DNA of 64,000 nt, taken from contig NZ_JAQNDL010000001.1 of assembly GCF_028368995.1 (NCBI RefSeq), positions 3,552,001 to 3,616,000 on the forward strand. The letters run 5' to 3'. Of this stretch, positions 12,762 to 62,900 are shown in pieces; the stretch's first letter is position 1, and each line of letters opens with the position of its first letter. Source of the DNA: Nannocystis bainbridge. Its GTDB lineage: Bacteria; Myxococcota_A; Polyangia; Nannocystales; Nannocystaceae. The position numbers and the translations under genes are program-made. A model generated the notes under the pieces. That model was not told the origin of the DNA and searched no databases. It was given only the letters and a program-made list of their open reading frames with translations.

Positions 12762-14405
12762 ATGGAGACGGCCCCGCCGAGCGCCGACCCGCAGGTCGTC
12801 GACCTGGCCAGGATGAGCCTGCCCCGGCTCATGTTCGCGCTGCTGCACCGCCGCTTCACCGGCACGATCAGCCTCACGCCGGCGGCCCCGGACGCGCCCG
12901 GCCGCAGCGCCGACGTCGGCGCGCGTCGGGTGTGGTTTCAGGGCGGGATGCCGATCTTCACCGACTTTTCCAGCCCGCACGACTCGATCGGCCAGGTGCT
13001 CGTCGATCTCGGGCTCATCGAGCCGGCCGAGCGGGACCGCGCGATGGCCGAACTGGCCCGCCTGGCCCAGCCAGGGGCCCCGCGCGAGCGTTTCGGCCAT
13101 TACCTCGTGCGCCGCCGCCTCGTCACCGGCGGCCAGCTCCGCAAGGCGCTGCGCGTCCAGTGCGCCCGCAAGGTGGTCCACCTGTTCGCCCTGCGCGCCG
13201 GCTCGGCCCAGATCGTCGCCGGCGACGCCGCCGCCGCCGAGACCGACGCCTCGCAGCCGACCCAGGTCAACACCCTCGAGCTCATCCACGCCGGCGTGGT
13301 CGCCCACTTCGACCCACGCCGGATCGCCGCCGAGATGGGCCTCCTGCTCGACGGCCCGCTGCGCCTGCGCTCGTCGTTCGACCGCTACCGGACCCAGTTC
13401 CACTTCGCCAAGGGCGACGAGGCGATCGTCGACGCCCTGCGCCCCGGCAACCTCTACGTCACCGACGTCGCCCGCCTGTCCGGTCAGCCCGAGGCCCGCG
13501 TCGCCGCGGTGGTCTACACGCTGTGGGCCTGTCAGATGTTGAAGTCGGCCAACGCACCGCCCGACCAGGCGACCGGGCCGAACGCCATCCTGCCCGAAGC
13601 GACAGGTTCTTCGATACCTGTCCTCAAGAACAGCAAGCCGGCGGGGCGCGACAGCCTGCGCGCGGCCGAGTTCGCCGGCGAGCTCGAGCGGCTCGAAGCG
13701 GCGATCGCCGGCGGGGCCAACGCGTTCGACCTGCTCGGCCTGGCGGCCACCGCCGACCGGGCCCAGGTCCGCGCCGCCTGGCATGTGCTGAGCCGGCGCT
13801 TTCACCCCGACAGCCTGCCGCACCAGGGCCTCGGCCACCTGCGCGAGCGCTCGCAGGCGGTGTTCGCCGCGCTCAGCGAGGCCTACCAGCGGCTTTCCGA
13901 CGACGCCCAGCGCGAGCAGATCGCGGCGCTGCTGCGCGGCGGGCAGCCGGCCCCGCGCGCGACCGCGGGCCCGAGCGCGCAGGCGGTGCTCGAGAGCGAG
14001 GTGGTGGTCCGCGAGGGCGACAAGCTGCTGCGCGCCGGCAACTTCGACCGCGCGCTCGAGCGCTACCGCAAGGCCGCGGCCCTCAACCCCGACGAGCTCG
14101 AGGTCCGCGCCGCGATCGCGTGGTGCGAGTACCAGCTGGCCGCCGACAAGGCGCCGGTCCGCGACGCCACCCGCGCGGCCCTGTTCGAGGTCCTGGCCCG
14201 CCAGCCGCGCTGCGTCCGCGCCCACTACGACCTGGGCCTGCTGTCCCTCGGGTCCGGTGACGACGAACAGGCGCTGCTGCATTTTAATCAGGTGCTCGAG
14301 CTGGAGCCCGACAGCATCGACGCGAAGCGGCAGATCCACGCGATCCAGCTGCGCCGCTCGACGCCCGAGGGCCCGCGCCGCAAGCTGTTCGGCCCGCGCC
14401 GGTGA
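12762..14405 (+). CDS. Myxobacterial DUF4388-like / J-domain / TPR protein
   Basis: N-terminal SLPRLMFALL..FTG; RRFHPD J-like motif; C-terminal TPRs. Confidence 0.8.
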   Translation: METAPPSADPQVVDLARMSLPRLMFALLHRRFTGTISLTPAAPDAPGRSADVGARRVWFQGGMPIFTDFSSPHDSIGQVLVDLGLIEPAERDRAMAELARLAQPGAPRERFGHYLVRRRLVTGGQLRKALRVQCARKVVHLFALRAGSAQIVAGDAAAAETDASQPTQVNTLELIHAGVVAHFDPRRIAAEMGLLLDGPLRLRSSFDRYRTQFHFAKGDEAIVDALRPGNLYVTDVARLSGQPEARVAAVVYTLWACQMLKSANAPPDQATGPNAILPEATGSSIPVLKNSKPAGRDSLRAAEFAGELERLEAAIAGGANAFDLLGLAATADRAQVRAAWHVLSRRFHPDSLPHQGLGHLRERSQAVFAALSEAYQRLSDDAQREQIAALLRGGQPAPRATAGPSAQAVLESEVVVREGDKLLRAGNFDRALERYRKAAALNPDELEVRAAIAWCEYQLAADKAPVRDATRAALFEVLARQPRCVRAHYDLGLLSLGSGDDEQALLHFNQVLELEPDSIDAKRQIHAIQLRRSTPEGPRRKLFGPRR

Positions 14406-14410
14406 GGCGG

Positions 14411-16443: not shown

Positions 16444-16453
16444 GGTGGTCCCT

Positions 16454-21033: not shown

Positions 21034-21447
21034 ATGGCCGAGCCCGAGACCGACAACGCCGAAGCGCTGATGAGCGCCTACCTCGACGAGGAGCTCGACG
21101 CCGAGGGCAAGAGCAAGCTCGAGGCGATGCTCGCGACCTCGCCCGCGGCGCAGAAGGAGCTGTCCGGCCTGCAGAACATGCTGCGGCTGGTCAAGGGCCT
21201 GCCCGAGGAGCAGGCCCCGCCCGACTTCTACGAGAAGGTCGCCAAGAAGATCCGCCGCCGCCGCTGGCTGCGCGGCGAGTACCTGATCGCGCTGGCCCTG
21301 CCGTTCCAGATCATCAACGTCCTCGTGATCCTCGCCGTCGCGGTCGTCTACATGATGCTCCACCTGGACGTCGACGTCGCCGGCCGCAAGCTCGAGCGCG
21401 ACCCGACGGTCCAGCAGGCCAAGCCGCCCGCGACGCCTGCGCCTTAG
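21034..21447 (+). CDS. Membrane anti-sigma factor
   Basis: LMSAYLDEEL N-terminal anti-sigma motif, one TM helix, directly after the ECF sigma. Confidence 0.85.
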   Translation: MAEPETDNAEALMSAYLDEELDAEGKSKLEAMLATSPAAQKELSGLQNMLRLVKGLPEEQAPPDFYEKVAKKIRRRRWLRGEYLIALALPFQIINVLVILAVAVVYMMLHLDVDVAGRKLERDPTVQQAKPPATPAP

Positions 21448-21507
21448 GGCATGTTCTCCGGGGCATGTCCTCGCGGGCATGTCCCCGGGCGCATGTCCTC
21501 GCGGACA
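21438..21507. repeat. Array of five 14-bp spaced palindromes
   Basis: TGCGC CTTA GGGCA|TGTTC TCCG GGGCA|TGTCC TCGC GGGCA|TGTCC CCGG GCGCA|TGTCC TCGC GGACA. Confidence 0.9.
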
Positions 21508-21520: not shown

Positions 21521-23785
21521 TCACTTGTGGTGGAACACGGCCACACCGTCCCAGTCGGGCGGCGCCGCCTCGCCGAGGCCTTCCAGCCGCCCCAGGTGCA
21601 GGCGCACCACCGGGTCGTCCGGGTTCTCGGCGGCGAACGCCTGCCAGTGCGCGCGCGCGGCCGCGAAGTCGCCGGCGCGGAAGGCCGTCAGGGCCGCGCT
21701 CCAGCGGTCCAGCGCCGCGTACTCGGCGACGGCCCCGTCCGGCCCCGCCAGCAGCTCGAAGATCGCCACCGGTCGGCCCTTGCCCTTCACGCGCACCAGG
21801 TCGACCTCGCGGAAGCGGTAGCTCGGCGGCGCGGCGGCGCGGGTGCCGGCGCCGACCAGGCAGAACACCCCGTACGTCTTCGTCAGGCCCTCGAGGCGCG
21901 ACGCCAGGTTGACCGCGTCGCCGCACACCGTGTAGTCGAAGCGGTCGGCCGAGCCCATGTTGCCGACCACCATGTCGCCGGTGTTGATGCCGACGCCGAT
22001 CTGCAGCGCCTCGACCCCGAACTGGCGCAGCGACGGCTGCAGCCGGGCCAGCGCGGCGTGCATCGCCAGCGCGGTGGCGAGGCCGCGCGCGGCGTGGTCG
22101 GCCCGGGCCACCGGCGCGCCGTACACCGCCATCACCGCGTCGCCGATGTACTTGTCGAGGTAGCCGGCGCGCGCCATCACCTCCTGCGTCATCGGCGTGA
22201 GGAACGTGTTGAGCAGCGCCACCAGGTCCTCGGGCGACAGCCGCTCGGCCACGCCGGTGAAGTCGCGGATGTCGGAGAACAGCACCGTCAGCTCGCGCCG
22301 CGCCCCGCCGAGCCCGAGGGCCTTGGGGTCGGCCAGCAATTCGTCGAGCACCTCGGCCCCGAGGTAGCTGGAGAACGTCCGCCGCAGCCGCGCCCGCTGC
22401 AGCGCCTCGCCGGCGTACGCGGCCGCCAGCGCCGCCGAGCCCGCGACCACCGCGGCCAGCAGCGGCCACACCAGCGCCAGCCACAGGTGCATGCGCGTGA
22501 ACGCCAGCGCCGCCGCGGCGACGTCGAGGCCGATCACCGCCAGCACCCCGGCGATGCGCGCGAGCGGCCCGGCCCGCAGCGCCGCGGCGAACAGCAAGCT
22601 GACCAAAAGGCCAGATATCAGCGTGACCAGGGCGTCGGTCAGGGCCGAGCTGCGGACCAGCGGGTCGCCGGCGAGGATCGTGTCGACGGCGGTGGCCTGC
22701 AGCTCGACGCCGGGCAGATCGCCGGCGAACGGGGTGCGGACGACGTCGTGGCCGAAGTAGGTCACGCCGAGCAGGACGATCTTGCCGCGCAGCAGCGCGT
22801 CGGCGCGGCCCTCGACGACATCGGCCGCCGACACCGTGGGGAAGGTCCCGGGCCCGCCGCGGAAGTTGAGCACCACCGCCTCGTCGGCGCCGAGCGGGAC
22901 CCGGCGTGCGCCGATCTGCAGGCTCGCCTCGCCGCCGAGGAACGCCAGCTCGGCCCGCCCGAGGCCCTCGCGCAGGGCGACCAGCTGGACCGACAGCGGC
23001 GCGTAGGCGGCGTCGCCGACCCGCCAGGCCGCGGGGATCGTGCGCACCGCGCGGCCTGGGTCCTCCTCGACGGTGATCCCGCCGAGCGCCCGCGCCCGCG
23101 CGACCAGCTCGGGCAGCGACACCAGCCCCGCCTCGGCGATCCGGATCGGGGGCGAGCGCGCGTCCTGCTGGCCGTAGCGCCCGTGACGCAGCGTCGCCGG
23201 GTCCGGCAGAGGCCGCCCATCACCTGACTCTTGGGTCAGATGAATCGCCAGCGCCACGTTGCCCGCGGCCGCCACCGCGCTCGCCAGCTCGGCGTCGCCC
23301 GTCAGCTCGCGCGCGACCTCCCGCAGCAGCGCCTCGGCCTGGCCTTCGGGACCTGCTCCGACGGGCATGTCCTTTTCGACATGTCCCTTGATGCGGGCGC
23401 CGAGCTCCGGCGACAGCAGCTCCTCGGGGTCGACGTAGACCTGGTCGATGCCGATCGCCGCCGGCCGCGCCGCCGCCAGCGCGCGCACCAGCGCGGCCGT
23501 GCCGGCGCGGCGCTGGTAGAGCTCGGGCCGGCGCTCGAGCGTGGCGTCGTCGATGGCCACGATCACCACCTCGCCGGTGGTCGGGACCGGCCCGCGCCAG
23601 CGGAACCGCTGGTCGAGGCTGGCCCGCTCGAGCGCGTCGACCCACCGCACCCGCCAGCCCGCGCGCTCCAGACCGCACAGCAGGGCGATCGCCACGCTGA
23701 GCAGCCCGGCCAGCAGCGCCGGCGAGCGCAGCAAGGCCCGCCGGCGCGCGCCGGGCCGCGACGGGCTGGCCGGGGCGCCGCGCAT
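21521..23785 (-). CDS. CHASE2-domain adenylate/guanylate cyclase
   Basis: VIVAIDD CHASE2 start, PGVELQA, three TMs, LFSDIRDFT, DKYIGDAVM, GDAVNLASRLEG. Confidence 0.95.
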   Translation of the reverse strand: MRGAPASPSRPGARRRALLRSPALLAGLLSVAIALLCGLERAGWRVRWVDALERASLDQRFRWRGPVPTTGEVVIVAIDDATLERRPELYQRRAGTAALVRALAAARPAAIGIDQVYVDPEELLSPELGARIKGHVEKDMPVGAGPEGQAEALLREVARELTGDAELASAVAAAGNVALAIHLTQESGDGRPLPDPATLRHGRYGQQDARSPPIRIAEAGLVSLPELVARARALGGITVEEDPGRAVRTIPAAWRVGDAAYAPLSVQLVALREGLGRAELAFLGGEASLQIGARRVPLGADEAVVLNFRGGPGTFPTVSAADVVEGRADALLRGKIVLLGVTYFGHDVVRTPFAGDLPGVELQATAVDTILAGDPLVRSSALTDALVTLISGLLVSLLFAAALRAGPLARIAGVLAVIGLDVAAAALAFTRMHLWLALVWPLLAAVVAGSAALAAAYAGEALQRARLRRTFSSYLGAEVLDELLADPKALGLGGARRELTVLFSDIRDFTGVAERLSPEDLVALLNTFLTPMTQEVMARAGYLDKYIGDAVMAVYGAPVARADHAARGLATALAMHAALARLQPSLRQFGVEALQIGVGINTGDMVVGNMGSADRFDYTVCGDAVNLASRLEGLTKTYGVFCLVGAGTRAAAPPSYRFREVDLVRVKGKGRPVAIFELLAGPDGAVAEYAALDRWSAALTAFRAGDFAAARAHWQAFAAENPDDPVVRLHLGRLEGLGEAAPPDWDGVAVFHHK

Positions 23786-27350: not shown

Positions 27351-27431
27351 CCGAACGGACATGTCCTCCGGGGCATGTCCGTTCGCACCTGGCCATTTGA
27401 ACCTGGCGACTCGGACATGTCCCTCCAGACA
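27348..27431. repeat. Array of six 14-bp units filling the hisF-hisI gap
   Basis: TGACC GAAC GGACA|TGTCC TCCG GGGCA|TGTCC GTTC GCACC|TGGCC ATTT GAACC|TGGCG ACTC GGACA|TGTCC CTCC AGACA. Confidence 0.85.
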
Positions 27432-28133: not shown

Positions 28134-28152
28134 CGCCGCGCGCGTCAGCCAG

Positions 28153-28306
28153 CGCTGCACCGATCGCCGCGCCCGCGCAGGCCGCTCGCGCCTCGTCGTC
28201 GCGTGCGCCGATCGCCGGGCCCGCGCGGGCCCAATTGCGCAGCCATCGCTGCACCGATCGCCGGGCCCGCGCAGGCCGCTCGCGCCTCGTCGTAGCGTGC
28301 GCCGAT
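28153..28306. repeat. About 60-bp imperfect direct repeat (28153-28212 and 28247-28306)
   Basis: CGCTGCACCGATCGCCG(C/G)GCCCGCGCAGGCCGCTCGCGCCTCGTCGT(C/A)GCGTGCGCCGAT occurs twice. Confidence 0.8.
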
Positions 28307-29415: not shown

Positions 29416-29496
29416 CCACACGGACATGCCCTTGGGAGCATGTCCATGCGGTCATGCTCCCAAGAACATGCCCTCGGGGACATGTCCCAAGCGACA
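29413..29496. repeat. Array of six 14-bp units
   Basis: TGACC ACAC GGACA|TGCCC TTGG GAGCA|TGTCC ATGC GGTCA|TGCTC CCAA GAACA|TGCCC TCGG GGACA|TGTCC CAAG CGACA. Confidence 0.9.
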
Positions 29497-29543: not shown

Positions 29544-30647
29544 TCAGGCCGCGCGCGACCACAGCGCCGCGTCGAGCTCGCCGCACAGGCGGACCGCCGT
29601 GGCCACCGGCGGCAGGCCGAGCGCGCGCAGGCCGGGCGCCTCGAACCCCGCCAGCGACGCCTGCAGCTCGGCGATCGCCGCCCGCCGGGCGGTCGCCACC
29701 GCCTCGCGGCCGGCGGCGTCGAGCTGTCCCATGAACCAGGCGTCGATCGCCCACGCCAGCTCGGCGTGGCGCGCCTCGTCGCCGGCGATCTCGGCGTACA
29801 TCGCCCGCAGCGCGGGCGCGGCGGCGAAGCGGGCCTGATGCGCGGCGGCCAGCGCGGCCCAGGTCTCGCGCACGCAGCCCTCGACCGCGTTCTCGACCGC
29901 GATCGCCAGCAGCTCGCGCACCGCGAGGGCCGCGTGCGCCGGCGGCGTGACCTCGGCCCCGCGGGCGCGCGCCGCGGCGGCCACGACCTCGGCGTGGCGC
30001 ACCTCGTCGGCGGCGGCGGCGTCGATGCGCGCCAGCAGCTCGGCCGGCGCGCCCCAGGCCGCCAGCTCGCGCGCGAGCGAGCGGAACGCGTGGACCGAGG
30101 CGGCCTCGTCGTGGGCCGCGCGCGCCAGCCAGGCCCCGGCGGCGTCGGCCTCGGCCCGTTCGCCCCGCGAGGTCACGCAGGCGTGGCGCCGACCCTCGCA
30201 GTAGGCCGGATACGTGCACGCGACGGTCACCTTCGTCGCCTCCTCGGTGACCTCGCACCCCAGCAGCTCCTCGAAGTCGTTGACCCGGGTCTTGCACACC
30301 AGCGCGCACGTCTCCGCCTCGGACAGCAGCTCACCCCCGGTGGTGCTCGTCTCGGTCGCGCTTCCGTCCCCGTCGGTCGTGCCCGTGCTCGCGTCCGTCG
30401 TGCCCGTGCTCGCGTCCGTCGTGCCCGTGCTCGCGTCCGTCGTGTCGGTGCCGGCGGACGTGGTCACCGCATTCGGATCCGGCTCGATGGGATTGTTCTT
30501 CTGAAACTCGGCGTACACCTCGGGGGTCAGCTCGACCTTTTCGGTGTACTTGGAGGCCTTGCAGCCGTGGACCGAATCGCCGCAGCCGGCCAAGAGGTTG
30601 GCGAACAGCGCAGCGAGGGGCAGCGACAAATAATGAGGCGAATGCAT
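29544..30647 (-). CDS. Lipoprotein with Cys-rich N-terminus and ferritin-like (diiron) domain
   Basis: LAGC lipobox; CEGRR; EAASV, DEVRH, EGCVRET, DEARH (paired ExxH). Confidence 0.8.
   Translation of the reverse strand: MHSPHYLSLPLAALFANLLAGCGDSVHGCKASKYTEKVELTPEVYAEFQKNNPIEPDPNAVTTSAGTDTTDASTGTTDASTGTTDASTGTTDGDGSATETSTTGGELLSEAETCALVCKTRVNDFEELLGCEVTEEATKVTVACTYPAYCEGRRHACVTSRGERAEADAAGAWLARAAHDEAASVHAFRSLARELAAWGAPAELLARIDAAAADEVRHAEVVAAAARARGAEVTPPAHAALAVRELLAIAVENAVEGCVRETWAALAAAHQARFAAAPALRAMYAEIAGDEARHAELAWAIDAWFMGQLDAAGREAVATARRAAIAELQASLAGFEAPGLRALGLPPVATAVRLCGELDAALWSRAA
30376..30444. repeat. 21-bp tandem repeat x3 (TTDASTG linker)
   Basis: GTCGTGCCCGTGCTCGCGTCC repeated three times. 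Confidence 0.9.
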
Positions 30648-30686
30648 GCGGCCGAGCGTAGCAGCCCGTTCGCTGCGCGCCACGCT

Positions 30687-32132
30687 TCAGCCGCCGCGGG
30701 CGATGCCCAGCAGCTTCATCTTTTTATGAAGGTGTGTGCGCTCGACATCGAGGGTCTCGGCCGTCTTTGAAACATTCCAGTTCTGCTCGCTCAAGCGCTG
30801 GAGGATGAACGCCCGCTCGACCGAGTCGCGGAACGCCTTGAGCGACATGCCCGGAGGGACAGCTCCCTCGCCGAACTGGACCACCGCGTCGCCACCGACC
30901 GGCGCCCCGGCTTCTTCTTCTAAATCGCCGCGGATCTCCAGCGGCACGTCGCCGATGTCGATGTCGCCGTCGGACAGGATCGCGGTCCGCTCCATCACGT
31001 TGCGCAGCTCGCGGACGTTGCCCGGCCACGGGTAGGTCTCGAGCACCGCCTGGGCGGCCGGCGACAGCCGCTTGGGCGCGATGCCGTTCTCGTGGCAGGC
31101 CAGGTCGAGGTAGTAGCGGCACAGCAGCGCGACGTCGCCCGGGCGCTCGCGCAGCGACGGCACGGCGATCGGCACCACCGCCAGGCGAAAATAAAGGTCC
31201 TCGCGAAACTCGCCGGTGCCCACGAGCTCGCGCAGGTTGCGGTGGGTCGCCGCGAGCACGCGGACGTCGACCTTGATGGGCCGCTCGCCGCCGACCCGCA
31301 TCAACTCGCCGCTCTGCAGCACGCGCAACACCTTGGCCTGCGCGTTCAGGTCCATGTCGCCGATCTCGTCGAGGAAGAGCGTGCCGCCGTGGGCCAGCTC
31401 GAACAGCCCGCGCTTCTGCGCGGTCGCGCCGGTGAACGAGCCGCGCTCGTGGCCGAACAGCTCGCTCTCGATCAGCTCGCGCGGGATCGCGGCGCAGTTG
31501 ACCTTCACGAACGCCGCGGCCCGCCGCTCGCTGGCGTCGTGGATGGCCCGCGCCACCAGCTCCTTGCCGGTCCCGCTCTCGCCCTCGATCAGCACCCGCG
31601 CCCGCGTGCCGCCGACCTTGATCACCTGCCGCAGCAGCTCCTGCATCGGCCGCGACTCGCCGATGATCTCGCGCCGCGCCAGCGCCCGCAGGCTGCGCAG
31701 CTCGGCCTCGGTCTGGTAGTGACGCAGGGCGTTGCGCACGCTGACGATCACGCGGTCGCGCGCGAGCGGCTTCTCGAAGAAATCAAAGGCGCCGAGCCGG
31801 GTCGCCCGCACGGCGTCGGTCACGGTGGCGTGGCCGCTGATGAGGATGATGGGCAGCGGGGGCGTGCCGCCGCCGATCTCGCACAACTTCTCGAGCAGCT
31901 GCAGGCCCGACATGCCGGGCAAGCAGACGTCGACCATGACGACCTGGATCGGTCGCTGGCCCTCGGGACCCTCGACGAGGGCGCGCTGGATCATCGCCAG
32001 GCCGTCCTCCGCGCTGTCGGCGTCGAGCACGGTGGCGCCCTCGCCCTCGAGCACCATGCGGAGCGTGCGACGGATGTTGCGCTCGTCGTCGATGACGAGG
32101 ATCGTCCCGTCCAGGGCCGTGGTCTCGCTCAT
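30687..32132 (-). CDS. Sigma54-dependent response regulator (NtrC/NtrX-like)
   Basis: Receiver domain, [29 protein letters not shown], Fis-type HTH. Confidence 0.95.
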
Positions 32133-32365
32133 GCGGGCCCGATCCTAGCACCGCCGGCGGCGGCCTCGCCCCGCCCGCGAGAGCGCCCGCGACGACCGCC
32201 AGCGACGGTGTCGCTTTGAAGTGCGCGGCGCCCGCAGCGTGGCTCGCACCGCGAATCTCGAATCATCGCGCGGCGCGTCGTCGCTCCGCGCTCGCAGCAG
32301 CCTCTCTGCGCACGCCGCGGTCTGCTCGAACTCACCGCGCAAGCAGCGAGCTGCGGGTCCTCGCC

Positions 32366-32498
32366 TCGCTCGCGCGTGGGCGTCGCGCCTCTACGGGCGC
32401 TCGCCCACGCTGCGAACGGAGTCACTGACGCATCGCTCGCGCGTGGGCGTCGCGCCTCTACGGGCGCTCGCCCACGCTGCGAACGGGAGTCACTGACG
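32366..32498. repeat. Tandem 67-bp REP-like hairpin repeat at the hisS 3' end
   Basis: Two copies, each with stem GCGTGGGCG...CGCCCACGC; the second copy contains the hisS stop codon. Confidence 0.85.
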
Positions 32499-37785: not shown

Positions 37786-37975
37786 ACGGCCTGACTGCCT
37801 GCATGGCTCGCCCGCGGCCACAGGTCAAGTCCCCGCCGCGGGCGCGGCGAGGACGCCCTGCGCGCCGTGAAACCCGACCGGCTTCGGACCCGTCTCAGGC
37901 AAGCCTGCCGCGACGTTGTCGACACGCTCACGGCTGGGTATCCTGTCCCTCACCCCTCGCGAGGCCCTCCGGACC

Positions 37976-39140: not shown

Positions 39141-39177
39141 GAGCGCGTCGCCCCCAGGCGGCGCGCTCTTCGCTTTC
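39141..39177 (+). terminator. Putative intrinsic terminator
   Basis: GAGCGCGTCGCC-CCCA-GGCGGCGCGCTC hairpin followed by TTCGCTTTC. Confidence 0.5.
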
Positions 39178-42144: not shown

Positions 42145-42208
42145 GAGGGGCGACTCCGGGGAGGCAGTGTTTCTCGAGGCCGAGGGGCCGGGGAGACAAG
42201 GTTCAGGG

Positions 42209-42257
42209 CGAAGGCCGTGAAGCGAGTGGCCGAAGGCCGTGAAGCGAGTGGCCGAAG
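42209..42257. repeat. 22-bp tandem repeat in the pal leader
   Basis: CGAAGGCCGTGAAGCGAGTGGC x2 plus a partial copy. Confidence 0.8.
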
Positions 42258-42399
42258 GGCCGGGGGGAAAGCGTGTGGGCCAAAGGGCCGTGGAGAGCGA
42301 GAGGCCAGGGAGCTCTGGCGTGGACGGAGGCCGGAGGCAAACTGTCGTGCGGGGGTCCGGGAAGCAAATTTCCGGCGAAACTTCCGTCTGGCGGGCCAA

Positions 42400-42428
42400 G
42401 GGATACCGAGCGGTGCGAGGGGTGTCAA
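42400..42428 (-). promoter_or_regulatory. Putative sigma70 promoter for pal-cpoB-MTase
   Basis: Minus strand TTGACA-17 nt-TATCCC. Confidence 0.5.
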
Positions 42429-42610
42429 CCGCACGGGCGGGCGACCCGGCGCCGGACCGAGCCGCGGGGGCCAGGGCCCCGGTGGGCCTCGCCGCCGGTT
42501 CGCAGAGGCCGCACCGGGCGGCCGCAGAGGTCGCCTGCATGCGGCCGGGCCGGCCAGGTCACGCCCCCCCGGCTTTTGCTTCGGGGCCGCGTCTGGCATG
42601 GTTCGCGGCG

Positions 42611-42926: not shown

Positions 42927-43943
42927 ATGCGCTCGCGCCTGCTCCACCGCGTCGGCCTCCGCGCGCTGCCCGCGAGCCTCGCCGCCCTCGCCTGCGCCCC
43001 TGTCGACGACGCAATCCCCGTCGACCTGTCCGCCGACTACGACGGCCTGGTGTTGACCGACGCCCCCAGCGCCGTGGCCCACCTGGCCTGGCACGCGCCC
43101 CGCGCGGACTGCCCCCTCGCCTACCGCGTCCGCATCGACGAGACCTTCCCGCCCGGCCTGGCCGAGTTCCTCCACGCCCAGCCGGAGCGCAGCGAGTCGC
43201 TGCTGGTGCTCGGCTGGGGCGTGCAGTCCACGGCTGACCGAGAGAACATGACCGAAGGGCAAGGTTCGCAAGGACCTGTCCCCAAGGGCAGGCCGTTCGT
43301 CGGCCAATTGACGTACCGCGGGCCCAAGTCGGCCGGCCGCGAGCTGCTGCGCGAGTGGGCCGCCTCGGCCGAGTTGGTCGGCCCGGGCTCGCCCGACGCG
43401 GCCTGCTACGAGCGCACGTGGGACCCGGTCGAGGACGCGCTGGCGCTGGGGTTCCCGCAGCTGCCGGGCCGCCACACCCGCGTCGGCGAGGTCTGGCGCG
43501 GCGCCCGGGTCGAGGGCCGCTGCAACCGCTCGGCCTGCGTCGACCCCGAGAGCGGCGCCGGCGGGGCCGCGGCCCACGAGCGCCCGTGCGCGACGATGTC
43601 GTGGCGCGAGCGCCTGGTCGGCCTCTACGCGCTGGCCGGCGCCGGCGGCGAGGTCACCACGGTGGCCCAGATCGCCGGGTTTTGGAGCGACGGCCAGCCG
43701 CTCGACAAGGGCGTGTGGAGCGAGCGGACCGTGCTGGTCGACGCCGACCACGGCCGCCCGCTGCGCGCCGAGGTGTTCGTCCACCACAACTTCACCGGGA
43801 TCGAGCGGCACGTCGTGATCGACGCGGTCGACACCTGTCCCGGAGGACTGGTCGCGGCCGGCTGGGCCGCACCACAGGCCGTCGTCGACGAGCGGGCCGC
43901 CCTCACGGCCGCGCTGGAACGCGCGACTCAACGCAAGCGTTAG
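42927..43943 (+). CDS. Hypothetical lipoprotein
   Basis: ALAC lipobox; ends 6 nt before murA. Confidence 0.7.
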   Translation: MRSRLLHRVGLRALPASLAALACAPVDDAIPVDLSADYDGLVLTDAPSAVAHLAWHAPRADCPLAYRVRIDETFPPGLAEFLHAQPERSESLLVLGWGVQSTADRENMTEGQGSQGPVPKGRPFVGQLTYRGPKSAGRELLREWAASAELVGPGSPDAACYERTWDPVEDALALGFPQLPGRHTRVGEVWRGARVEGRCNRSACVDPESGAGGAAAHERPCATMSWRERLVGLYALAGAGGEVTTVAQIAGFWSDGQPLDKGVWSERTVLVDADHGRPLRAEVFVHHNFTGIERHVVIDAVDTCPGGLVAAGWAAPQAVVDERAALTAALERATQRKR

Positions 43944-45215: not shown

Positions 45216-45933
45216 CGGCCTCACCCTGGCCCTCCCCAAGGGCCGGATCCTCAAGCAGGCGCTACCGCTGCTGCGCCGGGTCGGGATCGACCTCACGGCC
45301 GCGTGGGAGGGCGAACACGACCGCCGGCTGCTGTTCGAGCTGCCGGCGGCCCGCGGCCTGGCCGGCGGCGTGCGCGTGCTCCTGGTCAAGCCGGTCGACG
45401 TGCCGACCTACGTCGAGCACGGGGTGGCCGACGTCGGCGTCGCCGGGGCCGACACCCTGGGCGAGGAGGCCCGCGACCTCTACGAGCCGCTGGACCTCGG
45501 CATCGGCGCCTGCCGGCTGGCGATCGCGGAGCCCGCCGCGCGCCCGACCCCGCTCCGCCGCGGCATGAGCCTCCGGGTGGCCACGAAGTACCCCCGCCTG
45601 ACCCTGAACCATTATCGCTCCAAGGGGGTCCAGCCGGAGATCATCCCCCTGTTCGGGTCGGTCGAGCTCGGGCCCATCACCGGCCTGTCGGACCAGATCG
45701 TCGATCTGGTGGAGAGCGGCGAGACGCTCCGGCAAAATAACTTGCGGGAGGTCGAGACCATCCTGTACGTGACAAGCCGGCTCATCGTGCACCCGGCCAG
45801 CCTCAAGCTCAAGCAGGCGCCCATCACCGCGCTCATCGCCGCCCTCCGTGACGCGCTCGCGACCGAAGGGTCCGCGTCCGCCGCTCGCAACGATTCGCCT
45901 GCTCGACCCACCGGGTCTGAAGGGACCGCATGA
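45199..45933 (+). CDS. hisG: ATP phosphoribosyltransferase, short form
   Basis: [29 protein letters not shown]; no C-terminal ACT domain. Confidence 0.95.
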
Positions 45934-46637
45934 GCAAACCCGACGACCCAGCACTCGTCCGCGCCGCGGTGCTCCAGCGCCTCAAGGTCCACGTCCGCAT
46001 CGCCCAGCAGGGTCTGGCGCCGACGCCCGACCAGCGGCGCCGCCTGGCCGCCTCGCTGCCGGAGTTGGTCGCGTTCGGCGACCGCCGCTACGCCCAGTGC
46101 CACGCCGTGCTCGACTGGGACCACCGTTTGCCCAGCGACGCGGCGGTGCTGCGGCTTTATCTGTCGTACACCGACCGCGAGGCCGGCGCGATCGAGAGCG
46201 CCCTCAAGTCGCGCGACCGCGAGATCGACGCTGGCAACCTCTACCCCGAGTTCGACGTGCCGGACTACGCCGACGTCGACGCCAGCGAGTCGTACGTCGC
46301 GGTCCTGAAGCCAGGCACCCACGAGGTCGGCGACCTGCGGTTCTTCAGCGACTGGCGCAAGGGCGTCCACCAGTCGGTCGCCCGCGAGGCCGTCGCGGCC
46401 GTGCGCACCAGCCCCAGCTACGAGCGCTCGATGCGGGAGCGCAGCCACGACAACCTCGGCCCGCCGGTGGTGATCGGCTGGACCCCGCCGTGCCTGGCCC
46501 AGAGCAAGCACTGGGCGATCGAGGTGTGGCTGCTGGTCGACTTCGACGGCCACGTCGGCCGCGCCCACGTGTTCATGGTCGACAGCAAGTCGCACCTGGT
46601 CACCCGCGAGTACTTCACCGAGGTCCAGATCGGCTGA
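45930..46637 (+). CDS. Hypothetical protein
   Basis: 235-aa ORF coupled to hisG (ATGA overlap). Confidence 0.75.
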
Positions 46638-46704
46638 CCTCGGAGACATGTCCCCTCGGGCATGCCGCATCGAGCATGCCCTGGGGGACATGTCCGCCAG
46701 GACA
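46635..46704. repeat. Array of five 14-bp units
   Basis: TGACC TCGG AGACA|TGTCC CCTC GGGCA|TGCCG CATC GAGCA|TGCCC TGGG GGACA|TGTCC GCCA GGACA. Confidence 0.9.
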
Positions 46705-46706: not shown

Positions 46707-47186
46707 CTAGCTGTCCTGGATCTTGATCGTCCGGCAGCTCTCGCCGGCGATCTTCGGCATCTTGAGGGTCAGCACGCCCTTCTCGAGGTGGGCGTCGGCG
46801 GCGCTCGAGTCGACGTGGCACGGCAGCTCGACCCGGCGGATGAACGAGCCGAAGCTGCGCTCGTGGTAGAAGTAGTTCTCGTTGTCGTCGCGCAGCTCCT
46901 CGCGCTTCTCGCCGCGCAGGGTCAAGATGTTGCCCTCGACGCTGCACTCGACGTCCTTGCCGTCGAGGCCGGGGACCTCGGCGCGGACCATGATGCAGTC
47001 GCCGCAGTCGCTGACGCTGAGCATGGGGTAGTTGCCGACCTGTTCGAAGCCGAGCGGGAAGCGGCCGAACACGCGGTCGAACATGCGGTGCATGTCCTGC
47101 TGGAACGGCGACATCGGCGACGTCGGCGACGTCGGCGACATCAGGTTGCTGGCAGGTTGATTCTTCTTCCAGGGGAGCAGCGACAT
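46707..47186 (-). CDS. Hsp20/alpha-crystallin small heat-shock protein
   Basis: AEVPGL, LTLRGEK, ERSFGSFIR, GVLTLKMPK. Confidence 0.93.
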   Translation of the reverse strand: MSLLPWKKNQPASNLMSPTSPTSPMSPFQQDMHRMFDRVFGRFPLGFEQVGNYPMLSVSDCGDCIMVRAEVPGLDGKDVECSVEGNILTLRGEKREELRDDNENYFYHERSFGSFIRRVELPCHVDSSAADAHLEKGVLTLKMPKIAGESCRTIKIQDS

Positions 47187-47273
47187 GATCATCTCCTCAG
47201 CGCGGAGAACCATGGGCCGGACCCTCTCGCCCGCAAACGCAAAAATTTTGCGCGTGCGGGCCGAACTAAGCCG

Positions 47274-48539: not shown

Positions 48540-50206
48540 CGCCCGTCCTCGAAGGTCGTGCGGCCGGGCACGCGCACGTCGTGCTCGCGGGCGAACTGGA
48601 GCGCCTCGTCGTAGCCGGCGTCGACGTGGCGGACCACGCCCATGCCCGGGTCGGTGGTCAGCACCCGCTGCAGCCGCCGCTCGGCGCTCGCGGTGCCGTC
48701 GGCGACCACGACCATGCCCGCGTGCAGGCTGTAGCCCATGCCGACGCCGCCGCCGTGGTGCACGCTGACCCACGTCGCGCCGGCGGCGACGTTGATCATC
48801 GCGTTGAGGATCGGCCAGTCGCCGATCGCGTCGGAGCCGTCCTTCATGCCCTCGGTCTCGCGGTTGGGCGAGGCCACGCTGCCGCAGTCGAGGTGGTCGC
48901 GGCCGATCACGATCGGCGCCTTGACCTTGCCGGTGCGCACCAGCTCGTTGAAAAGCAGCCCCGCCCGCTCGCGCTCGCCGTAGCCGAGCCAGCAGATCCG
49001 CGCCGGCAGGCCCTGGAACTTGACCTGCGCGCGCGCCAGCTCGATCCACCGCCGCAGCCCGGCGTTGTCGGGGAACAGCTCCAGCACCGCACGGTCGGTC
49101 ACCGCGATGTCCTCCGGGTCGCCCGACAGCGCCGCCCAGCGGAACGGGCCCTTGCCCTCGCAGAACAGCGGGCGGATGTACAGCGGCACGAAGCCCTTGA
49201 TCTCGAACGCGTCGTCGACCCCGGCGCGGACCGCCTGGGCGCGGATGTTGTTGCCGTAGTCGAACGCGATCGCGCCCCTGTCCTGCATCGCCCGCATCGC
49301 CGCCACGTGGCGGCCCATCGCGTCGACGCTGCGGCGCACGTACTCCTCGGGGTCGCTGCGGCGCAGCTCGTCGGCTGCCTCGAGGGACATGTCGTCGGGG
49401 ACATATCCGTGAAGCTCGTCGTGGGCCGAGGTCTGGTCGGTGACGACGTCGGGGATCACCCCGCGGCGGACCAGCTCCGGCAGCACGGTGGCGCAGTTGC
49501 CGAGCAGACCGACCGACAGCGGCTCTTTGGCCTTGCGGGCGGCGTCGAGCCAGCGCAGCGCCTCGTCGAGGTCGGTCGTGCTGCGCATCAGATACTTGTG
49601 CTGCAGCCGGCGCTCGATGCGTTGCGGGTCGACGTCGACGCACAGGATCGCCGCGCCGTTCATGGTCGCCGCCAGTGGCTGGGCCCCGCCCATCCCGCCG
49701 AGCCCGCCGGTGACCACCAGTCGCCCGCGCAGATCGCCGCCGAAGTGGGTCTGCCCGCACGCCGCGAACGTCTCGAACGTGCCTTGAAGGATCCCCTGCG
49801 TGCCGATGTAGATCCAGCTACCGGCCGTCATCTGCCCGTACATCGTCAGCCCGAGCGCGCTCAGCCGCTCGTGCTCCGCCAGCGTCGCCCACTTCGGCAC
49901 CAGCAGGCTGTTGGCCAGCAACACCCGCGGCGCGTCCTCATGGGTTTTAAAGATCGCCTGGGCCCGACCGCTCTGGACCAGCAGGGTCTCGTCGGCCTCG
50001 AGGCTCCTCAGGCTGGCGACGATCCGGTGGTAGTCGGGCCACGAGCGGGCCGCCTTGCCGGTGCCGCCGTAGACCACCAGGTCTTGCGGGCGCTCTGCCA
50101 CCTCGGGGTCGAGGTTGTTCATCAACATGCGCAGGGCGGCCTCCTGCGGCCAACCCTTGCACGACAGCGCGGTGCCGCGCGGCGCGCGGATCTCGGGGGC
50201 GTTCAT
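48536..50206 (-). CDS. hutU: Urocanate hydratase
   Basis: [42 protein letters not shown]. Confidence 0.98.
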
Positions 50207-50301: not shown

Positions 50302-51567
50302 TCAGCCCGGGTTGCAGAAATACAGGGCCTGGACCTTGCCTGTCTCTTTGAGCATGTCGCAGGCCGCGCCGCACAGCGTGACCTCGGTGTGCGGCACGCT
50401 CCACACGTAGCCGTCCTCGGCGCAGCTGGCGACCTCGGGCACCGGCTGGCCGTCGATCCACACCTCGAACAGCTCCGGCTCACTCGGGGCCGGGTCGACC
50501 GCGATCACGCACGACAGCGTGTCCTTCACGATCTGCTGGATCGCCGCCTGCAGCTCGTTCTGATTGGCGGTCTGGTAGAAGGGCTCGGGGCCGGGCTTGG
50601 GCTTGCCGCCGGCGAGCGCGAGGGTCGACAGTTGCTCGCTGGTGGAGGGGTCGACGTCGATGCCGACCACGTAGGTCGGGATGCCGAAGTCATTGAAGGT
50701 CTCCTCGACGGCGGCCTGGGCCTCGAGGAAGTTCTCGCCCTGGCAGGTGTCGGAGATCTCGCCGTCGGCGACGAGGATGGCGAACCGCTGCAAGCCCGGA
50801 TCGAGGGTCTTGAGGTACTCGTAGCCGCGCTTCAGGCCGGTCTCCATCGGCGTGCCGCCGAGCACCGCGAAGCCGGCCGCCGGGATGCCGGCCAGCACCG
50901 CGGCCGCGTTCATCGCCGCGATCGGGACCTCGACGCCCGGGGTGACCTCGCAGGCGCCGACGTTCACGAACGAGCCGGCGTCGATCTTCGGGTACAGCTT
51001 CACGCCGAAGTGAACCTCCTCGTCGAAGGTCGTCACCACGCCTTCGACGACCTGGTGGAGGCTGGTCCAGCGGGTCACCTCGGCGGTCTGCGGCTTGGCG
51101 TCGTGGTCCCACTTCTCCATCGACATCGAGCCCGACTTGTCGAGGATCAGCAGCACGCTCGGCGGCACTGGCACGACCTCGGTCTCCTCGCTGTCGCAAG
51201 GGATCTTGTCGGGCATGGTGGTGCCGACGCTGGTGCCGCTCGGGTCGCCGGTGGTGGTGGTCGTCGTCGAGGTGCCGGGCTCGGTCGTCGAGGTCGTCGG
51301 CTCCGGGCCGGTGGTCGGCACGACCGGGCCGGTGGTCGTGCCGGAACCGCTGGCGGTCCCGTCCGTCTCTGTCTCTTCGGACATGGTCGAAGAGACAGTC
51401 TCGCCGCCGGTCGGATCGGTGGCCGCGCCGGTGGTGGCGGTGGTCGGCTGGTTGCCGACGGACAGGCCGGAGCTGCTCCCGTTGGAGTCGCCACAGGCGA
51501 GGGGTACGCTCACGAGCGGGAGCAGGAGCGCGAACGCGCGGGCGTTCGAGAGGGCGATCGGCGTCAT
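50302..51567 (-). CDS. VWA-domain lipoprotein (CglB/CglD-like architecture)
   Basis: PLAC lipobox, Thr-rich linker, MIDAS DKSGS, GGTP, VADG, Cys-containing tail. Confidence 0.85.
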
Positions 51568-55713: not shown

Positions 55714-55736
55714 TGCGTGTCCGACGAGGAATCACA

Positions 55737-56005
55737 TGTCCCTTCGGACATGTCTGTCGCACCGCGTTCCGCAGCTCGCGGTCGCCGGCTCGCTCGCATC
55801 GTCTTGCGTGTTCGGCAGCGACGGGCCGGTCGCGTCCCGCCACCGAACGGCGAGCGTCGCATCGCCACACGGCCCCGACGGTCCACGCCCTTCGTCACCG
55901 AGGCTGCGAGGAGCGGGCCATTCGCCGCCGTTGACATGACCTCCGAGACGCAACCCGGAGCAACCGTCGGACGACGCACGCCCCCATGTCCCTTCGGACA
56001 TGTTC
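55737..56005. repeat. Two identical TGTCCCTTCGGACA units (55737, 55987) plus degenerate copies
   Basis: CATGTCCCTTCGGACATGT occurs at both ends of the intergenic region. Confidence 0.75.
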
Positions 56006-57883: not shown

Positions 57884-57889
57884 GTCGCC

Positions 57890-58819: not shown

Positions 58820-58908
58820 CTCGCGGGACATGTCCGATCGGACATCGACGCCTTCACGCGGCCCTTTCGGCCGCGTGACCGAGCGGACATGTCCTTGAAG
58901 ACATGCTC
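58817..58908. repeat. Two doublets of 14-bp units between convergent genes
   Basis: TGACT CGCG GGACA|TGTCC GATC GGACA and TGACC GAGC GGACA|TGTCC TTGA AGACA|TGCTC. Confidence 0.85.
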
Positions 58909-59907: not shown

Positions 59908-59909
59908 GC

Positions 59910-62900
59910 TCAGTTCGGCGCCGGTCCGAGGTGCAGCGAGAACTTCGTGTGCAGCGAGCGCGCGTCGGGGCCGGCTGCGTCCGGCTCCTTGTCGAACGAC
60001 ACCTCGCCGCGGACCGCCGTCAGGCGCTGCATCAGCCGTTCGATCGGCGAGCCTGCGATCGGCAGCGGCGGGAACGACGGCGCGATCGTCGAGCCCTGCA
60101 GTGGGTCGGCCGCGCCTTCGGGGCGGAGCGTGAACTCGGGCGTCCCGTGGGCGTTGAGCGGCGCGAACCCGAAGTATTGCAGCCCGAGCTGCGCCAGCCC
60201 GCTCGTCGACTGCGTCGCCTGCGGGTCCCCGCGCAGCAAGATCTCCGCCGAGCGCAGCGCCGAGCTCCCGGCCACGTTCGCCTGGCCCTGCAGCGTCCAC
60301 AGCAGCGCCGTCCACAGCGGCGCCCCCACGGCCGTGCGCGTCTGCACCACGAATTGCGGGTCCGTCGCCGCCCCGGCCTTCGGCAGCTTGCCGTCGAGCA
60401 GGTCGTCGATCATCCGCGTCACCGTCGGTCGGTCGAGGCCGACCACGATCGCCGCCCCGGTCTGCACGTAGTGGATCGCCGCCGCGTCCGCGATCGCCTT
60501 GTCGGGCAGCAGCGGCGCGCCCGGACTGATGCCGACGCGCACGATCGGCAGCTCGCGGTGGCGGGCCACCTCGCCCCACTCGACCATGCCCGGCGCCACC
60601 GACTCGATCGTGGTCCTGAACGCCGCCAGCGTCGCCACCAGCATCGTCGGGTTCTTGACCTCGGCGATCGCGTAGACCGGGAACTTGCCGACTTGCCGCC
60701 ACAGCTCCTGGTCCTCGAACGCGCTGCGCGAGCGCTTCGGCGGCAGCTGCGTCGTGTCGTCCCACTGCGACAGCATCCCGACCAGGCCCGCGCGGTCGTC
60801 GACCCCGAGCATCACCCAGTCGCCGAGCCAGCCGAGGCCGACATCGCCCTTGCCGGTCAGCGTGCGCATCAGCTGGTCCATGTCGCGGCGCAGCCCGCTG
60901 TCCTGGCCGACCGCCCACACCGCCGACAGCCCGCGCTCGCCCGCCGTCACCGACACCCGCGACTTGCCGACCACCCCCTCGATCTCGCTGTAGTCGGTCG
61001 CCGAGATCAGCGGCAGCACGCGCACGTCGACGTCGGCCAGCGAACCATCGGCCGCGTCGCGCACGTCGAGGCGGATCGCCACCGGGTCGATGAACTGCCG
61101 CCAGTAGTTCTGATAGCCGAGCGCGAAGTTGTCGTAAGCGGTGCGCTCCTCCTCGCTGACCTTCTCGACCGCCGGCAGGTCGATCAGCGGCGTGAGGGCC
61201 GCGGGCGAGCCCCAGGTCGAGCGCGCCCCCTGGCCCGGCGCGAACGCGATCGCCTCGCCGCCCGCGTGCTTGAGCTCGTCGGCCGCCAGCAGCCCGGCGG
61301 CGATCAAACCTTGCGTGTCCTTCGGGGCATGTCCGAACAGCCAGCCGTGGAGCAGCGCCGCGTAGCCGGGCACCAGCAGCTCGGCCAGCGCCTCCTGGCG
61401 GCGGGCGGCGAGCAGCTTCTGCTGCGGGCCGACGACCGCGGCGATGAACTTGTCGCTGAGGAACGCCAGCGCCTGGTGCGTGCCCGGGTCGCGCGCCAAC
61501 ATGTACTTCAGGTCAGGTTCATCCGCGAGCCGGGGCGCCTGACCCTGCGCCGCCGCGAGCACCCGGGCCAGCGCGCCGGGGCTGTTGGACACGAACGCCA
61601 GCTCGCCGACGCGGGCGCGGTGCTGGTTCACCAGCCCGGTCGGGTCGGCCGCGCGCTGGACATCGACCCCTGCCAGCTTGACCGTCGTCGCCTCGATCCC
61701 CGCGATCTCGGCGCGGAAGCCGTCGAGCTGGCGCGTCAGCTCGGCGTCGAACACCTCCGCCTGCTTGAGCGTGAAGATCAGCGTCACGTCGGTGCCCTCG
61801 CGCAGGTACGGATCGCTGCCGACGATCGCCACCTCGCCCACCACCGTGTGGCCGAACAGCTTGGCCAGGTCGCTGCGGCGCAGCCCGAGCTGTCGCTGGT
61901 AGCGCGCCGTCAGCCCGCGGTCCTCCGGGTTCTGTTGCAAGATCTGCACGACTGGCGTGATCCACGTGTCCGCCTCGTCGAGCAGGCGCAGCAGCAGGCG
62001 CACGTCGTCGATCCGCGCGTACCAGAACTCCGCCGGCGTCGCCGCGGCCAGCGGCTCGGCCGCGCCGCCGTTCGGGTTCGGCAGCGCCGCCTGCATCGCC
62101 GCGAACGGGTGAGCGGCCAGCGGCGGCGGCTTGAGGTCGGCCAGCGCGACCTTGCGCGGACCTTCCTCTCGGGACAGGCGCAGCCCGCGGTCGTGCTGCA
62201 GCGCCTCCTGCATCGACATCACCCCGGTGGTCGTGTCCATCAGCCGCGACAGGTCGGTGCGCGGTGGTTGACGGCTCAGCAGATCCGACCCGCCCAGCGC
62301 CTTGGACCCCGGCTGTCTCTTGAGCCACGTGGCGATCCGCCCGGCCGCGAATTGCTTCCACGGGTGCGGCTCGTTCCACGTGTCGCCGAGCGTCTGCACC
62401 ATCGCCTCGGCCCAGCGCACTTGCAGCCCGGCGTCGTCGGCCTGCTTCGGCGCACCCGCCCCGGCGAACGGCACCCGCACCCAGTCGTTGCGCCCGTCCT
62501 GCCAGCGGCGGGCGTAAAACGCCCCGCGCAGCGACGTCGGCGCGGCCGGCGATTTCGGCCGGCGGACCTGGATCACCGCCTCGCTGGCCCCGGTCCCGCT
62601 CGCCATCACCGCGACGTGGCCGGGGGTGTTGCCCTCGAGCTCGACGTGCAGGCGGTCCCAGTCGAGCGACAGGTCGTCGCCGACGATCGGCACCCGGACC
62701 TCGACGTACTCGACCTCGCCCTCGACCCGGTAGGCCGCGATCGCGCCCTGCAGCTCGGCGTGCTCGAGCGGCGCGCGGGTGCCGGTGCGCAGCGCGGGCA
62801 GCGGGTCCGGCGGATCTTCGGCGCGCACCGTCGGCGCCGGCGTCCCGACCTGCTCGTTCGAACCTGTCTCTTCGGACTTGTCCTTGCCGCAGCCGGCGAG

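Follow-up and report, generated by a model that had tools for sequence, protein, structure and literature searches.

Why should one short palindrome be written, in phase, into many different protein-coding sequences? The question is raised by a stretch of 64,000 nucleotides of the genome of Nannocystis bainbridge (contig NZ_JAQNDL010000001.1, positions 3,552,001 to 3,616,000), here called the window and numbered from its first letter. The motif is the palindromic decamer GGACATGTCC followed by four variable nucleotides, repeated head to tail with a strict period of 14 bp. An original prediction, made from the letters of the window, held that selection at the DNA level bends the choice of codon and residue in these genes, as with uptake sequences, matS or the FtsK-orienting polar sequences (KOPS), and that the copies are not inserted mobile repeats. 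That account missed the pair of palindromes as the selected unit, and the 3′ ends of genes as the main habitat. The explanation that we favor, with a probability of about 0.6, is a two-palindrome, genus-specific element under selection at the nucleic-acid level, which would serve chiefly as a two-way hairpin at transcript ends and would be read by a hypothetical factor of fixed geometry.

The motif in the genome and the genus

The genome analyzed (G000) comprises 11.05 Mb in five contigs with 71.5% GC, and a gene caller of our own, based on codon usage, places 7565 genes in it, with 85.6% of the sequence coding. Ten congeneric genomes are labeled G001-G010. The exact decamer GGACATGTCC occurs 956 times in G000, compared with 0-26 times for five control decamers of the same composition. 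Within the window there are 66 matches to its 9-mer core with at most one mismatch, against 12.1 +/- 4.8 in shuffled sequence, and 66 was reached in none of 100 shuffles. Distances between units in G000 peak only at 14, 28, 42 and 56 bp. Pairs with the 14-bp spacing number 468 in tandem gaps, 736 in convergent gaps and 340 in coding sequences, and no other spacing from 10 to 22 bp exceeds 5. In a matrix built from 2196 units CATG is almost invariant, GGA and TCC are strong, and the spacer has no base preference except for a weak symmetry. Overall the element is about 100-fold over-represented, with some 2000 sites in the genome. Arrays reach 12 units, and Tandem Repeats Finder calls the motif in the window at 21447-21504, 29439-29491 and 62848-62882. 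On contig C3 (1085840-1085947) a variant unit, GGTCATGYCCCTGA, has recently been amplified in tandem at one place, giving eight near-identical copies.

With as many as two mismatches allowed, the two-unit pattern is present in all ten congeneric genomes (7-532 matches each). Outside the genus it was found in one of 14 other genera of the family, with two matches, and in none of 16 genomes from the class's other families, and a reversed control pattern gave 0-1 matches in the scan of this genome set. When one genome from each of 185,579 species was scanned for exact pairs, 78 stretches were returned, of which 75 belong to Nannocystis, to Nannocystaceae or to records of metagenome-assembled genomes of Myxococcales. 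The single stretch in 2.9 million viral contigs is too little to inform. The near-exclusive occurrence in congeners makes the element a trait of the genus Nannocystis. Arrays number 848 in G000, compared with 366-532 in G001, G003, G005, G007 and G010, whose genomes are of similar size, and this more than two-fold spread among close relatives indicates that the element is still expanding or sharpening in the G000 lineage. Full-text literature searches, with subscription journals outside their coverage, found no published description of the motif. The papers containing the decamer string were, among the matches listed, eukaryotic studies, mostly of p53.

Along the genome there are 24-74 arrays per 250-kb bin, on all five contigs, and the motif, being a palindrome, has no strand polarity. 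The suggested analogies with matS and KOPS therefore fall away. We observed no regular long-range spacing of arrays; the coefficient of variation of the distances between arrays is 1.56, more clustered than random in what is a simple test and not a sine fit of the kind applied to the cyanobacterial motif HIP1 (highly iterated palindrome 1). The idea that arrays in genes fill gaps was not supported (p = 0.11). The five largest stretches free of arrays extend up to 200 kb and contain 4-23 convergent gaps each, with a GC fraction of 0.684-0.702 in four of them and 0.723 in the fifth. One of 200 kb (C1:1098834-1299353) is without an array despite 23 convergent gaps, with a GC fraction of 0.689 compared with 0.715, and other long array-free stretches of this genome lie at 0.684-0.706. 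Such stretches may be acquired DNA that has yet to gain the motif.

Pairs within genes

We compared gene interiors throughout the genome (less the first 50 and the last five codons) with ten synonymous-codon shuffles, the comparison on which the original prediction had staked its case. The units found in genes clearly exceed the shuffles: 292 exact decamers against 35, and 1207 units matching at least nine of ten positions against 464. The 14-bp pairs number 340 against 12.5, a 27-fold excess, and strict pairs 80 against 0.8, about 100-fold. Solitary units with at least nine matches are not enriched (283 against 303). Since the excess lies in pairs and there is none in solitary units, the pair is what is enriched in genes. 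In the window the same test was made on 51 complete genes with 500 shuffles. Here 11 units with at least nine matches were found against 1.95 +/- 1.24, and 11 was reached in none of the shuffles. There are three 14-bp pairs against 0.17, and 15 loose pairs (7/10 with 7/10) against 2.8 with a shuffle maximum of 8, while single 8/10 units are at chance (35 against 36.6). Where the prediction had listed units in register within coding sequences, the paired sites, classed as strong or moderate in Table 1, hold up, and about six single-unit sites are individually at chance level. The gene identities that it gave agree with Pfam.

The codons of these patches are unusual for the genome. Inside 95 arrays with clearly coding flanks the GC content of third codon positions (GC3) is 0.616, compared with 0.931 for all genes. 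The share of GGA rises to 0.41 from the usual 0.03, that of CAT to 0.92 from 0.12, ACA to 0.82 from 0.03, GAA to 0.51 from 0.09 and TGT to 0.83 from 0.11, so that these five codons stand at 5 to 27 times their usual share. The prediction that scarce codons ending in A or T are used is thus correct for ACA, CAT and GAA, to which GGA and TGT can be added; it is incorrect for AAA, which is not raised (0.06 against 0.06). All three reading frames are used by the pairs (181/96/63), and the peptides encoded are GHV(P/L)xDMS, xDMSxGT(G/C)P or GT(G/C)PxGHV. In the frame that would encode cysteine the variant GGACAGGTCC is often substituted. With three frames in use no peptide is the target, and the pattern of frames together with the cysteine-avoiding variant shows that it is the nucleic acid that is constrained, in a trade-off with the protein.

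The copies in genes might be explained by chance resemblance together with constraint on the protein, or by selection for a peptide motif. Several single units do coincide with conserved residues (for example DLFSG of a methyltransferase and ETCLRGQ of an oxidoreductase) and are not above chance, and part of the pair in HutU (GY-VP..MS) is ancestral protein sequence. For pairs this explanation is refuted by the excess over shuffles, by three frames giving three peptides and by the conservation of rare codons, and it stands solely for isolated single units. As a general account it is exceedingly unlikely.

The route by which the pairs entered genes was followed in orthologs. The set comprised the two strongest conserved genes of the window and eight genes with Pfam domains drawn from 21 strict pairs with coding flanks outside the window. 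A beta-lactamase-like gene was dropped from the count of indels as it had no ortholog in the outgroup, leaving nine informative cases. In five (HutU, endonuclease III-like, DDAH-like, ABC ATPase and TrkH) there is no change in length, and the motif was approached by stepwise substitutions with intermediate states in relatives. In HutU the codons GGC TAC GTC CCC GAC GGC CTC TCC became GGA TAT GTC CCC GAC GAC ATG TCC, using the rare codons GGA and TAT, with no indel across 20 aligned ortholog loci. In the endonuclease III (Nth)-like protein GGC GAG GTG..AGC TTC became GGA CAT GTC..GAC ATG, replacing E by H, S by D and F by M, with intermediates in G004 and G010. The TrkH pair required R to H, A to V, H to N and A to S. 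The remaining four cases lie in variable loops of differing length: the RimM loop has six codons more than that of distant congeners, and the differences are +5 codons in PurH, +3 in a transporter of the MFS family and -1 in an amine oxidase. None of the nine comparisons contains a gap of the size of the element (24, 28 or 42 nt).

These alignments bear on the possibility that the arrays are inserted mobile repeats, of the type of repetitive extragenic palindromic sequences (REP), bacterial interspersed mosaic elements (BIME) or miniature inverted-repeat transposable elements (MITE), spreading as DNA copies and tolerated in genes as in-frame insertions in loops. The four cases in loops of variable length would suit that explanation, as would local tandem amplification, of which the eight near-identical units on contig C3 are an example. 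It does not account for the five pairs made without change of length through intermediates, nor for the lack of element-sized gaps. Moreover, no Y1 or REP-associated tyrosine transposase (RAYT) was found in G000 (0 matches to PF01797), in a search that was positive in 6 of 14 control genomes. The earlier assertion that the copies in genes were not inserted as mobile repeats agrees with the ortholog alignments.

The units in genes are, moreover, conserved and not in decay. Of 45 in-gene units in 285 kb that are colinear between G000 and G005, 40 still match at least eight of ten positions in G005. Identity at third positions is 141/152 (0.928) inside units, compared with 0.851 elsewhere (p = 0.006) and with 0.832 within 150 nt (p = 0.001). 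Third positions with A or T are conserved in 28 of 32 cases inside units, compared with 1802 of 3942 (46%) elsewhere (p = 2e-6). Thus an element once formed within a gene is retained. Its rare codons, the very ones whose loss might be expected, are conserved, and rare codons elsewhere are not. Together with the use of three frames and the routes of substitution, this is in accord with the central claim of the original prediction, that selection at the level of the nucleic acid bends the choice of codon and residue.

A mutational or repair bias acting without selection, through template switching at quasi-palindromes or mismatch repair directed by the motif, might produce a similar picture. Adjacent units are mutually inverted and so provide a substrate for quasi-palindrome correction, which would also mimic conservation, and HIP1 is discussed in such terms in excerpts of PMC5861425. 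Template switching should generate complementary arms and not a match to a consensus, and the arms within genes show no covariation. For changes such as GAG to CAT and TTC to ATG, both arms must have been hit independently several times, and intermediates exist in relatives. The D12 adenine methyltransferase encoded in the window (39256-40302), the only such enzyme tested, was rejected as a partner of the motif; 22 of 24 genomes of the family encode it, including those of genera without arrays, and so it does not track the motif. In NCBIfam it has only a weak match to the Dam family. Taking these points together, we regard mutational bias as quite unlikely.

Arrays at the 3′ ends of genes

Units with at least nine matches occur at 1.52 per kb outside genes and at 0.18 per kb inside, an 8.5-fold difference, and the density of pairs in convergent gaps is nearly 60-fold above that in genes. 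Arrays are held by 38.3% of 1362 convergent gaps, by 9.0% of 4837 tandem gaps and by 4.1% of 1361 divergent gaps, and for convergent gaps of 40-140 nt the figure is 313 of 533. The edge of the array lies a median of 28 nt from a stop codon, compared with 176 nt from a start codon. The element is thus placed mainly 0-100 nt past stop codons, above all between convergent genes. All six intergenic arrays of the window follow stop codons, five of them between convergent genes. On contig C3 (1487045-1487208) an array of 12 units exactly fills the space between the two stop codons of a convergent gap.

Adjacent units are mutually reverse-complementary, so that two units make up a stem of 10 bp with a loop of 4 nt, and four a nested hairpin. 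Folding gives -36.9 to -48.2 kcal/mol (z from -4.0 to -6.6) for five of the six arrays in the window, the sixth being weak. The pairing extends beyond the motif, since the six bases flanking two-unit intergenic arrays make 2.25 complementary matches where 1.76 are expected (z 9.9). Mirrored positions of adjacent intergenic units co-vary (p = 1e-7, contingency test), and in tandem gaps read on the sense strand there are 1043 G.U against 729 A.C (p = 9e-14). Simple correlations of mirrored positions were rejected as confounded by the symmetry of typical variants and by the mixing of true and chance arrays, and the evidence for covariation comes from contingency tests and the test of flank complementarity in their place. 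Inside a single unit there is no covariation, or it is negative (the complementary fraction is 0.349, with 0.428 expected), and a hairpin centered on a single unit with CATG in its loop is consequently not supported. A special tetraloop was likewise rejected; UUCG and CGAA occur 22 times each on the sense strand, and the excess of GNRA over its complement (54 against 33) is weak. No Rfam covariance model matched at the gathering score anywhere in the window.

In a folding survey of 50 gaps per class, structure reached -14.5 kcal/mol for gaps with an array, and convergent gaps without one, at -6.0 kcal/mol, still had an excess over divergent gaps, at -0.6 kcal/mol. Judged from these predicted structures, the arrays are probably the form that dominates among the hairpins at transcript ends in G000. 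In their convergent-gap position and strong symmetric hairpins they resemble bidirectional intrinsic terminators, and like terminators they present a GC-rich hairpin just past the stop codon. Unlike ordinary terminators, which share no sequence, they have a stem sequence and a 4-nt loop length that are fixed across the genome, and no T-run. A generic hairpin is insufficient to explain the fixed CATG, the GGA and TCC and the strict 14-bp spacing. Generic hairpins do occur; one convergent gap (37916-39112 + / 39253-40302 -) has no array and contains at 39141-39168 a 12-bp GC-rich stem with a T-rich tail, so that ordinary and motif-built hairpins coexist at gene ends.

The intergenic arrays change more freely than the copies in genes. 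Between G000 and G005 their place and the register of CATG are kept, yet spacer identity is no more than 41.7%, and 35 of 70 units could not be aligned. REP and BIME in enterobacteria and pseudomonads are stereotyped extragenic palindromes placed after genes, which fold into hairpins and whose copy number differs from one relative to another. In all of these respects the Nannocystis arrays are alike, and the rapid turnover, the preference for convergent gaps and the hairpin form count in favor of a mobile origin. Unlike REP and BIME, the unit is 14 bp and not about 35 bp, no RAYT was found, and the copies in genes are made by substitution and conserved. The intergenic arrays also stand at orthologous places in four congeners. 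We consider spread as mobile repeats to be very unlikely.

A putative reader, related systems and the window's individual sites

In the mechanism that we propose, the thing selected would be an element of 24 nt, two GGACATGTCC palindromes exactly 14 bp apart, extendable to arrays of 12 units. Between genes the arrays would act as two-way hairpins at transcript ends, either as terminators or by protecting the 3′ end. Within genes the element was reached by stepwise point substitutions, some of them synonymous changes to rare codons and some replacements of amino acids. The conservation of sequence and not only of pairing, the invariance of CATG, the strict 14-bp period and the lack of enrichment of solitary units together point to a sequence-specific reader of fixed geometry, most likely a protein that would bind a pair of neighboring palindromes, either in duplex DNA or in the hairpin. 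The advantage of the element, after genes as well as within them, would stem from such a reader. More tentatively, it may be specific to the genus, and selection for its roughly 2000 sites may have standardized the hairpins at transcript ends and rewritten coding sequence, down to conserved residues in proteins such as endonuclease III, HutU and TrkH. Copies in genes may stop untranslated or antisense transcription from either direction, and on the sense strand translating ribosomes may mask them.

A number of observations weigh against this explanation. The reader protein is itself hypothetical. The pairs in genes lack the signs of a hairpin (G.U 516 against A.C 498, flank z 0.8, no covariation of adjacent units), so that an RNA role inside genes is unsupported; we infer that these pairs are read by sequence and spacing, whatever reads them. 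No T-run follows the arrays, and canonical terminator-like patterns are at chance between 20001 and 40000 of the window (6 against 4.6). The G.U bias in tandem gaps could arise from a mutational asymmetry linked to transcription. Small indels are present in four of the nine ortholog cases, and that sample is small and was taken from among the strongest pairs in genes with Pfam domains. The test of conservation comprises 45 units in one 285-kb block compared with one relative, and the gene calls rest on our own caller.

The strongest rival is a drive like that of uptake signals, in which the motif is preferred by the machinery of DNA uptake or recombination in natural transformation and accumulates by point mutation at any site that tolerates it, with terminators co-opted from inverted pairs and no call for a local function within genes. 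Excerpts of Findlay & Redfield (PMC2817400) and of Helsem et al. (bioRxiv 10.1101/2025.10.24.684340) describe, for DNA uptake sequences (DUS) and for uptake signal sequences (USS), copies in genes arising by point mutation, frame bias, altered peptides and terminator hairpins. The Nannocystis motif resembles DUS of Neisseriaceae and USS of Pasteurellaceae, as these excerpts present them, in being a short taxon-specific motif with thousands of copies, evenly spread, concentrated at terminators and written into genes by substitution with a bias of frame. The array-free stretches of low GC are also what one would predict for acquired DNA without the motif, and homologs of ComEC and DprA are present. 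These two proteins are near-universal, being found in 10 and 11, respectively, of 14 control genomes. Single copies of DUS and USS are functional, whereas solitary units in genes are unenriched here, and the part of the original prediction that likened the motif to uptake sequences stands for its abundance, distribution and taxon specificity and fails on this point. The Nannocystis motif is itself palindromic, only exact 14-bp pairs are enriched, and strict pairing with arrays of up to 12 units is unlike known uptake sequences. Nor does uptake drive by itself predict the hairpin-level signs of the intergenic arrays. It is an unlikely explanation, and mobile repeats, mutational bias and chance or peptide selection all fit worse.

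The other close comparison is HIP1 (GCGATCGC) of cyanobacteria, a hyper-abundant palindrome conserved both inside and between open reading frames (ORFs), for which excerpts of PMC5861425 favor selection over neutral replenishment. As there, a palindrome is hyper-abundant in one lineage and its units in genes are conserved, and the over-representation in Nannocystis falls within the 15- to 300-fold range given for HIP1-like motifs. HIP1 is a single 8-mer, common in genes and periodic at 10-90 kb. The Nannocystis motif differs in its 14-bp tandem period, its preference for extragenic 3′ ends and its lack of long-range regularity, and no counterpart to the methyltransferase linked to HIP1 was found, the D12 enzyme being the one tested. 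In the way it works the element is most like DUS, USS and HIP1, and in the way it looks it is most like REP, BIME and bidirectional terminators. It lacks a defining property of each: enrichment of single copies for DUS and USS, long-range periodicity for HIP1, a RAYT for REP and a U-tract for a terminator.

The element offers a clean natural case of a nucleic-acid signal that overrides codon preference and the conservation of amino acids across a genus, and adds a myxobacterial member of distinct architecture to the small set of motifs written genome-wide, USS/DUS and HIP1. The exact geometry of the 14-bp pair points to a reader that is specific and could be retrieved. If the putative reader of 14-bp pairs is real, this would add a third, mechanistically distinct case to uptake sequences and HIP1 as motifs written genome-wide. 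To our knowledge very GC-rich myxobacteria are without canonical U-tract terminators, and the arrays provide a testable handle on transcript ends in these organisms. There is also a warning for annotation. The motif contains no stop codon in any of six frames, so that ORFs are helped to run through arrays, and calls of ORFs can be inflated.

Table 1. Occurrences of the motif in the window. In-gene sites of moderate class form pairs or hairpins and show conservation in four congeners; those of chance class are single units with 6-9 of 10 matches that are individually at chance level. Fractions are matches to the decamer for successive units.
Position	Location	Class	Units and sequence	Hairpin (kcal/mol; z)	Comparison and remarks
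623-646	rimM	In gene, strong	Pair (10/10, 9/10), encodes GHARSDMS	-20.7; z -5.2	
11024-11047	DAO oxidoreductase gene	In gene, chance	8/10, 7/10		Listed in the original prediction; not above chance alone, as residues are similar in G009 too
13600-13623	Linker of DUF4388/DnaJ/TPR gene	In gene, moderate	Variant pair GACAGGT..ACCTGTC	z -2.3	Nearly invariant in four congeners, flanks variable
21447-21498	Fills convergent gap (stop codons 21447, 21521)	Intergenic	4 units	One nested hairpin, -44.5; z -6.4	Orthologous in four congeners, CATG in register, spacers altered
23349-23386	Cyclase gene, CHASE2 part	In gene, strong	3 units (7, 9, 9 of 10), encodes GHVEKDMPVGAGP		In register yet diverging in four congeners; region with indel relative to G009
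27357-27422	hisF/hisIE	Intergenic	Units 1, 2, 5 strong, 3-4 degenerate	15-bp stem, -36.9; z -4.0	In G001, G003, G005 and G010, not in G009
29422-29487	Convergent gap after RRM-protein gene	Intergenic	5 units, complementary spacers TTGG/CCAA	-38.6; z -4.4	
30843-30866	Sigma-54 activator gene	In gene, moderate	Weak pair (8/10, 8/10)		Protein identical in G009; 5 synonymous differences, 4 raising the match (GGA, GCT, GTC, GGC)
34522-34545	Near ileS 3′ end	In gene, chance (unit 34536)	7/10, 9/10		Variable among congeners
39778		In gene, chance			
40193-40216	D12 methyltransferase gene, over DLFSG motif	In gene, chance	8/10, 7/10		Chance-level resemblance
43244-43281	Hypothetical gene 42927-43940	In gene, strong	Array (8, 6, 9 of 10)		
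46644-46695	Convergent gap (45930-46637 + / 46707-47213 -)	Intergenic	4 units	-46.3; z -6.5	Compensatory changes, units 2 vs 3, across G000, G001, G003, G005 and G010
48004		In gene, chance			
49385-49408	hutU, conserved enzyme region	In gene, strong	Pair (9/10, 9/10), encodes GYVPDDMS		
50350		In gene, chance			
51365-51402	CglB-like gene, Thr/Gly-rich linker	In gene, moderate	11-bp inverted repeat around CCATGTCC	-18.9; z -3.0	Conserved in four congeners, flanks variable
55732-55755	Convergent gap after DUF4915 gene	Intergenic	2 units	Weak, -12.3; z -1.6	4-5 units in relatives
58826-58895	Convergent gap	Intergenic	Two exact units, 59 bp apart, on either side of another GC-rich hairpin	-48.2; z -6.6	
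61311-61334		In gene, moderate	Unit 9/10 with 6/10 partner, encodes GHAPKDT		Identical in four congeners
62846-62883	Gene 59913-62963, directly past lipobox	In gene, strong	3 units (6, 7, 9 of 10)		

Some further features of the window were noted. The long ORF called for hutU (612 aa), whose Pfam match starts at residue 62, overlaps at 50305-50374 with the end of the CglB-like gene, and its start is probably over-called. At 42209-42258 a called OmpA-family gene (41296-42540) contains a tandem repeat of 22 bp, perfect over its 2.3 copies (100% matches); the repeat unit is not a multiple of three, making the gene call or the frame questionable at this point. A 21-bp repeat at 30343-30451 (3.9 copies, 95% matches, with a 42-bp higher order) falls in a gene without a Pfam family (29547-30683) and looks like a repeated heptapeptide tract. 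Two further repeats are unrelated to the 14-bp motif. One, of 46-48 bp in about three copies, is at the start of a PlsY-like gene (28141-28306), and the other, of 67 bp in 2.2 copies with 93% matches, lies between the sigma-54 activator gene and hisS (32362-32511).

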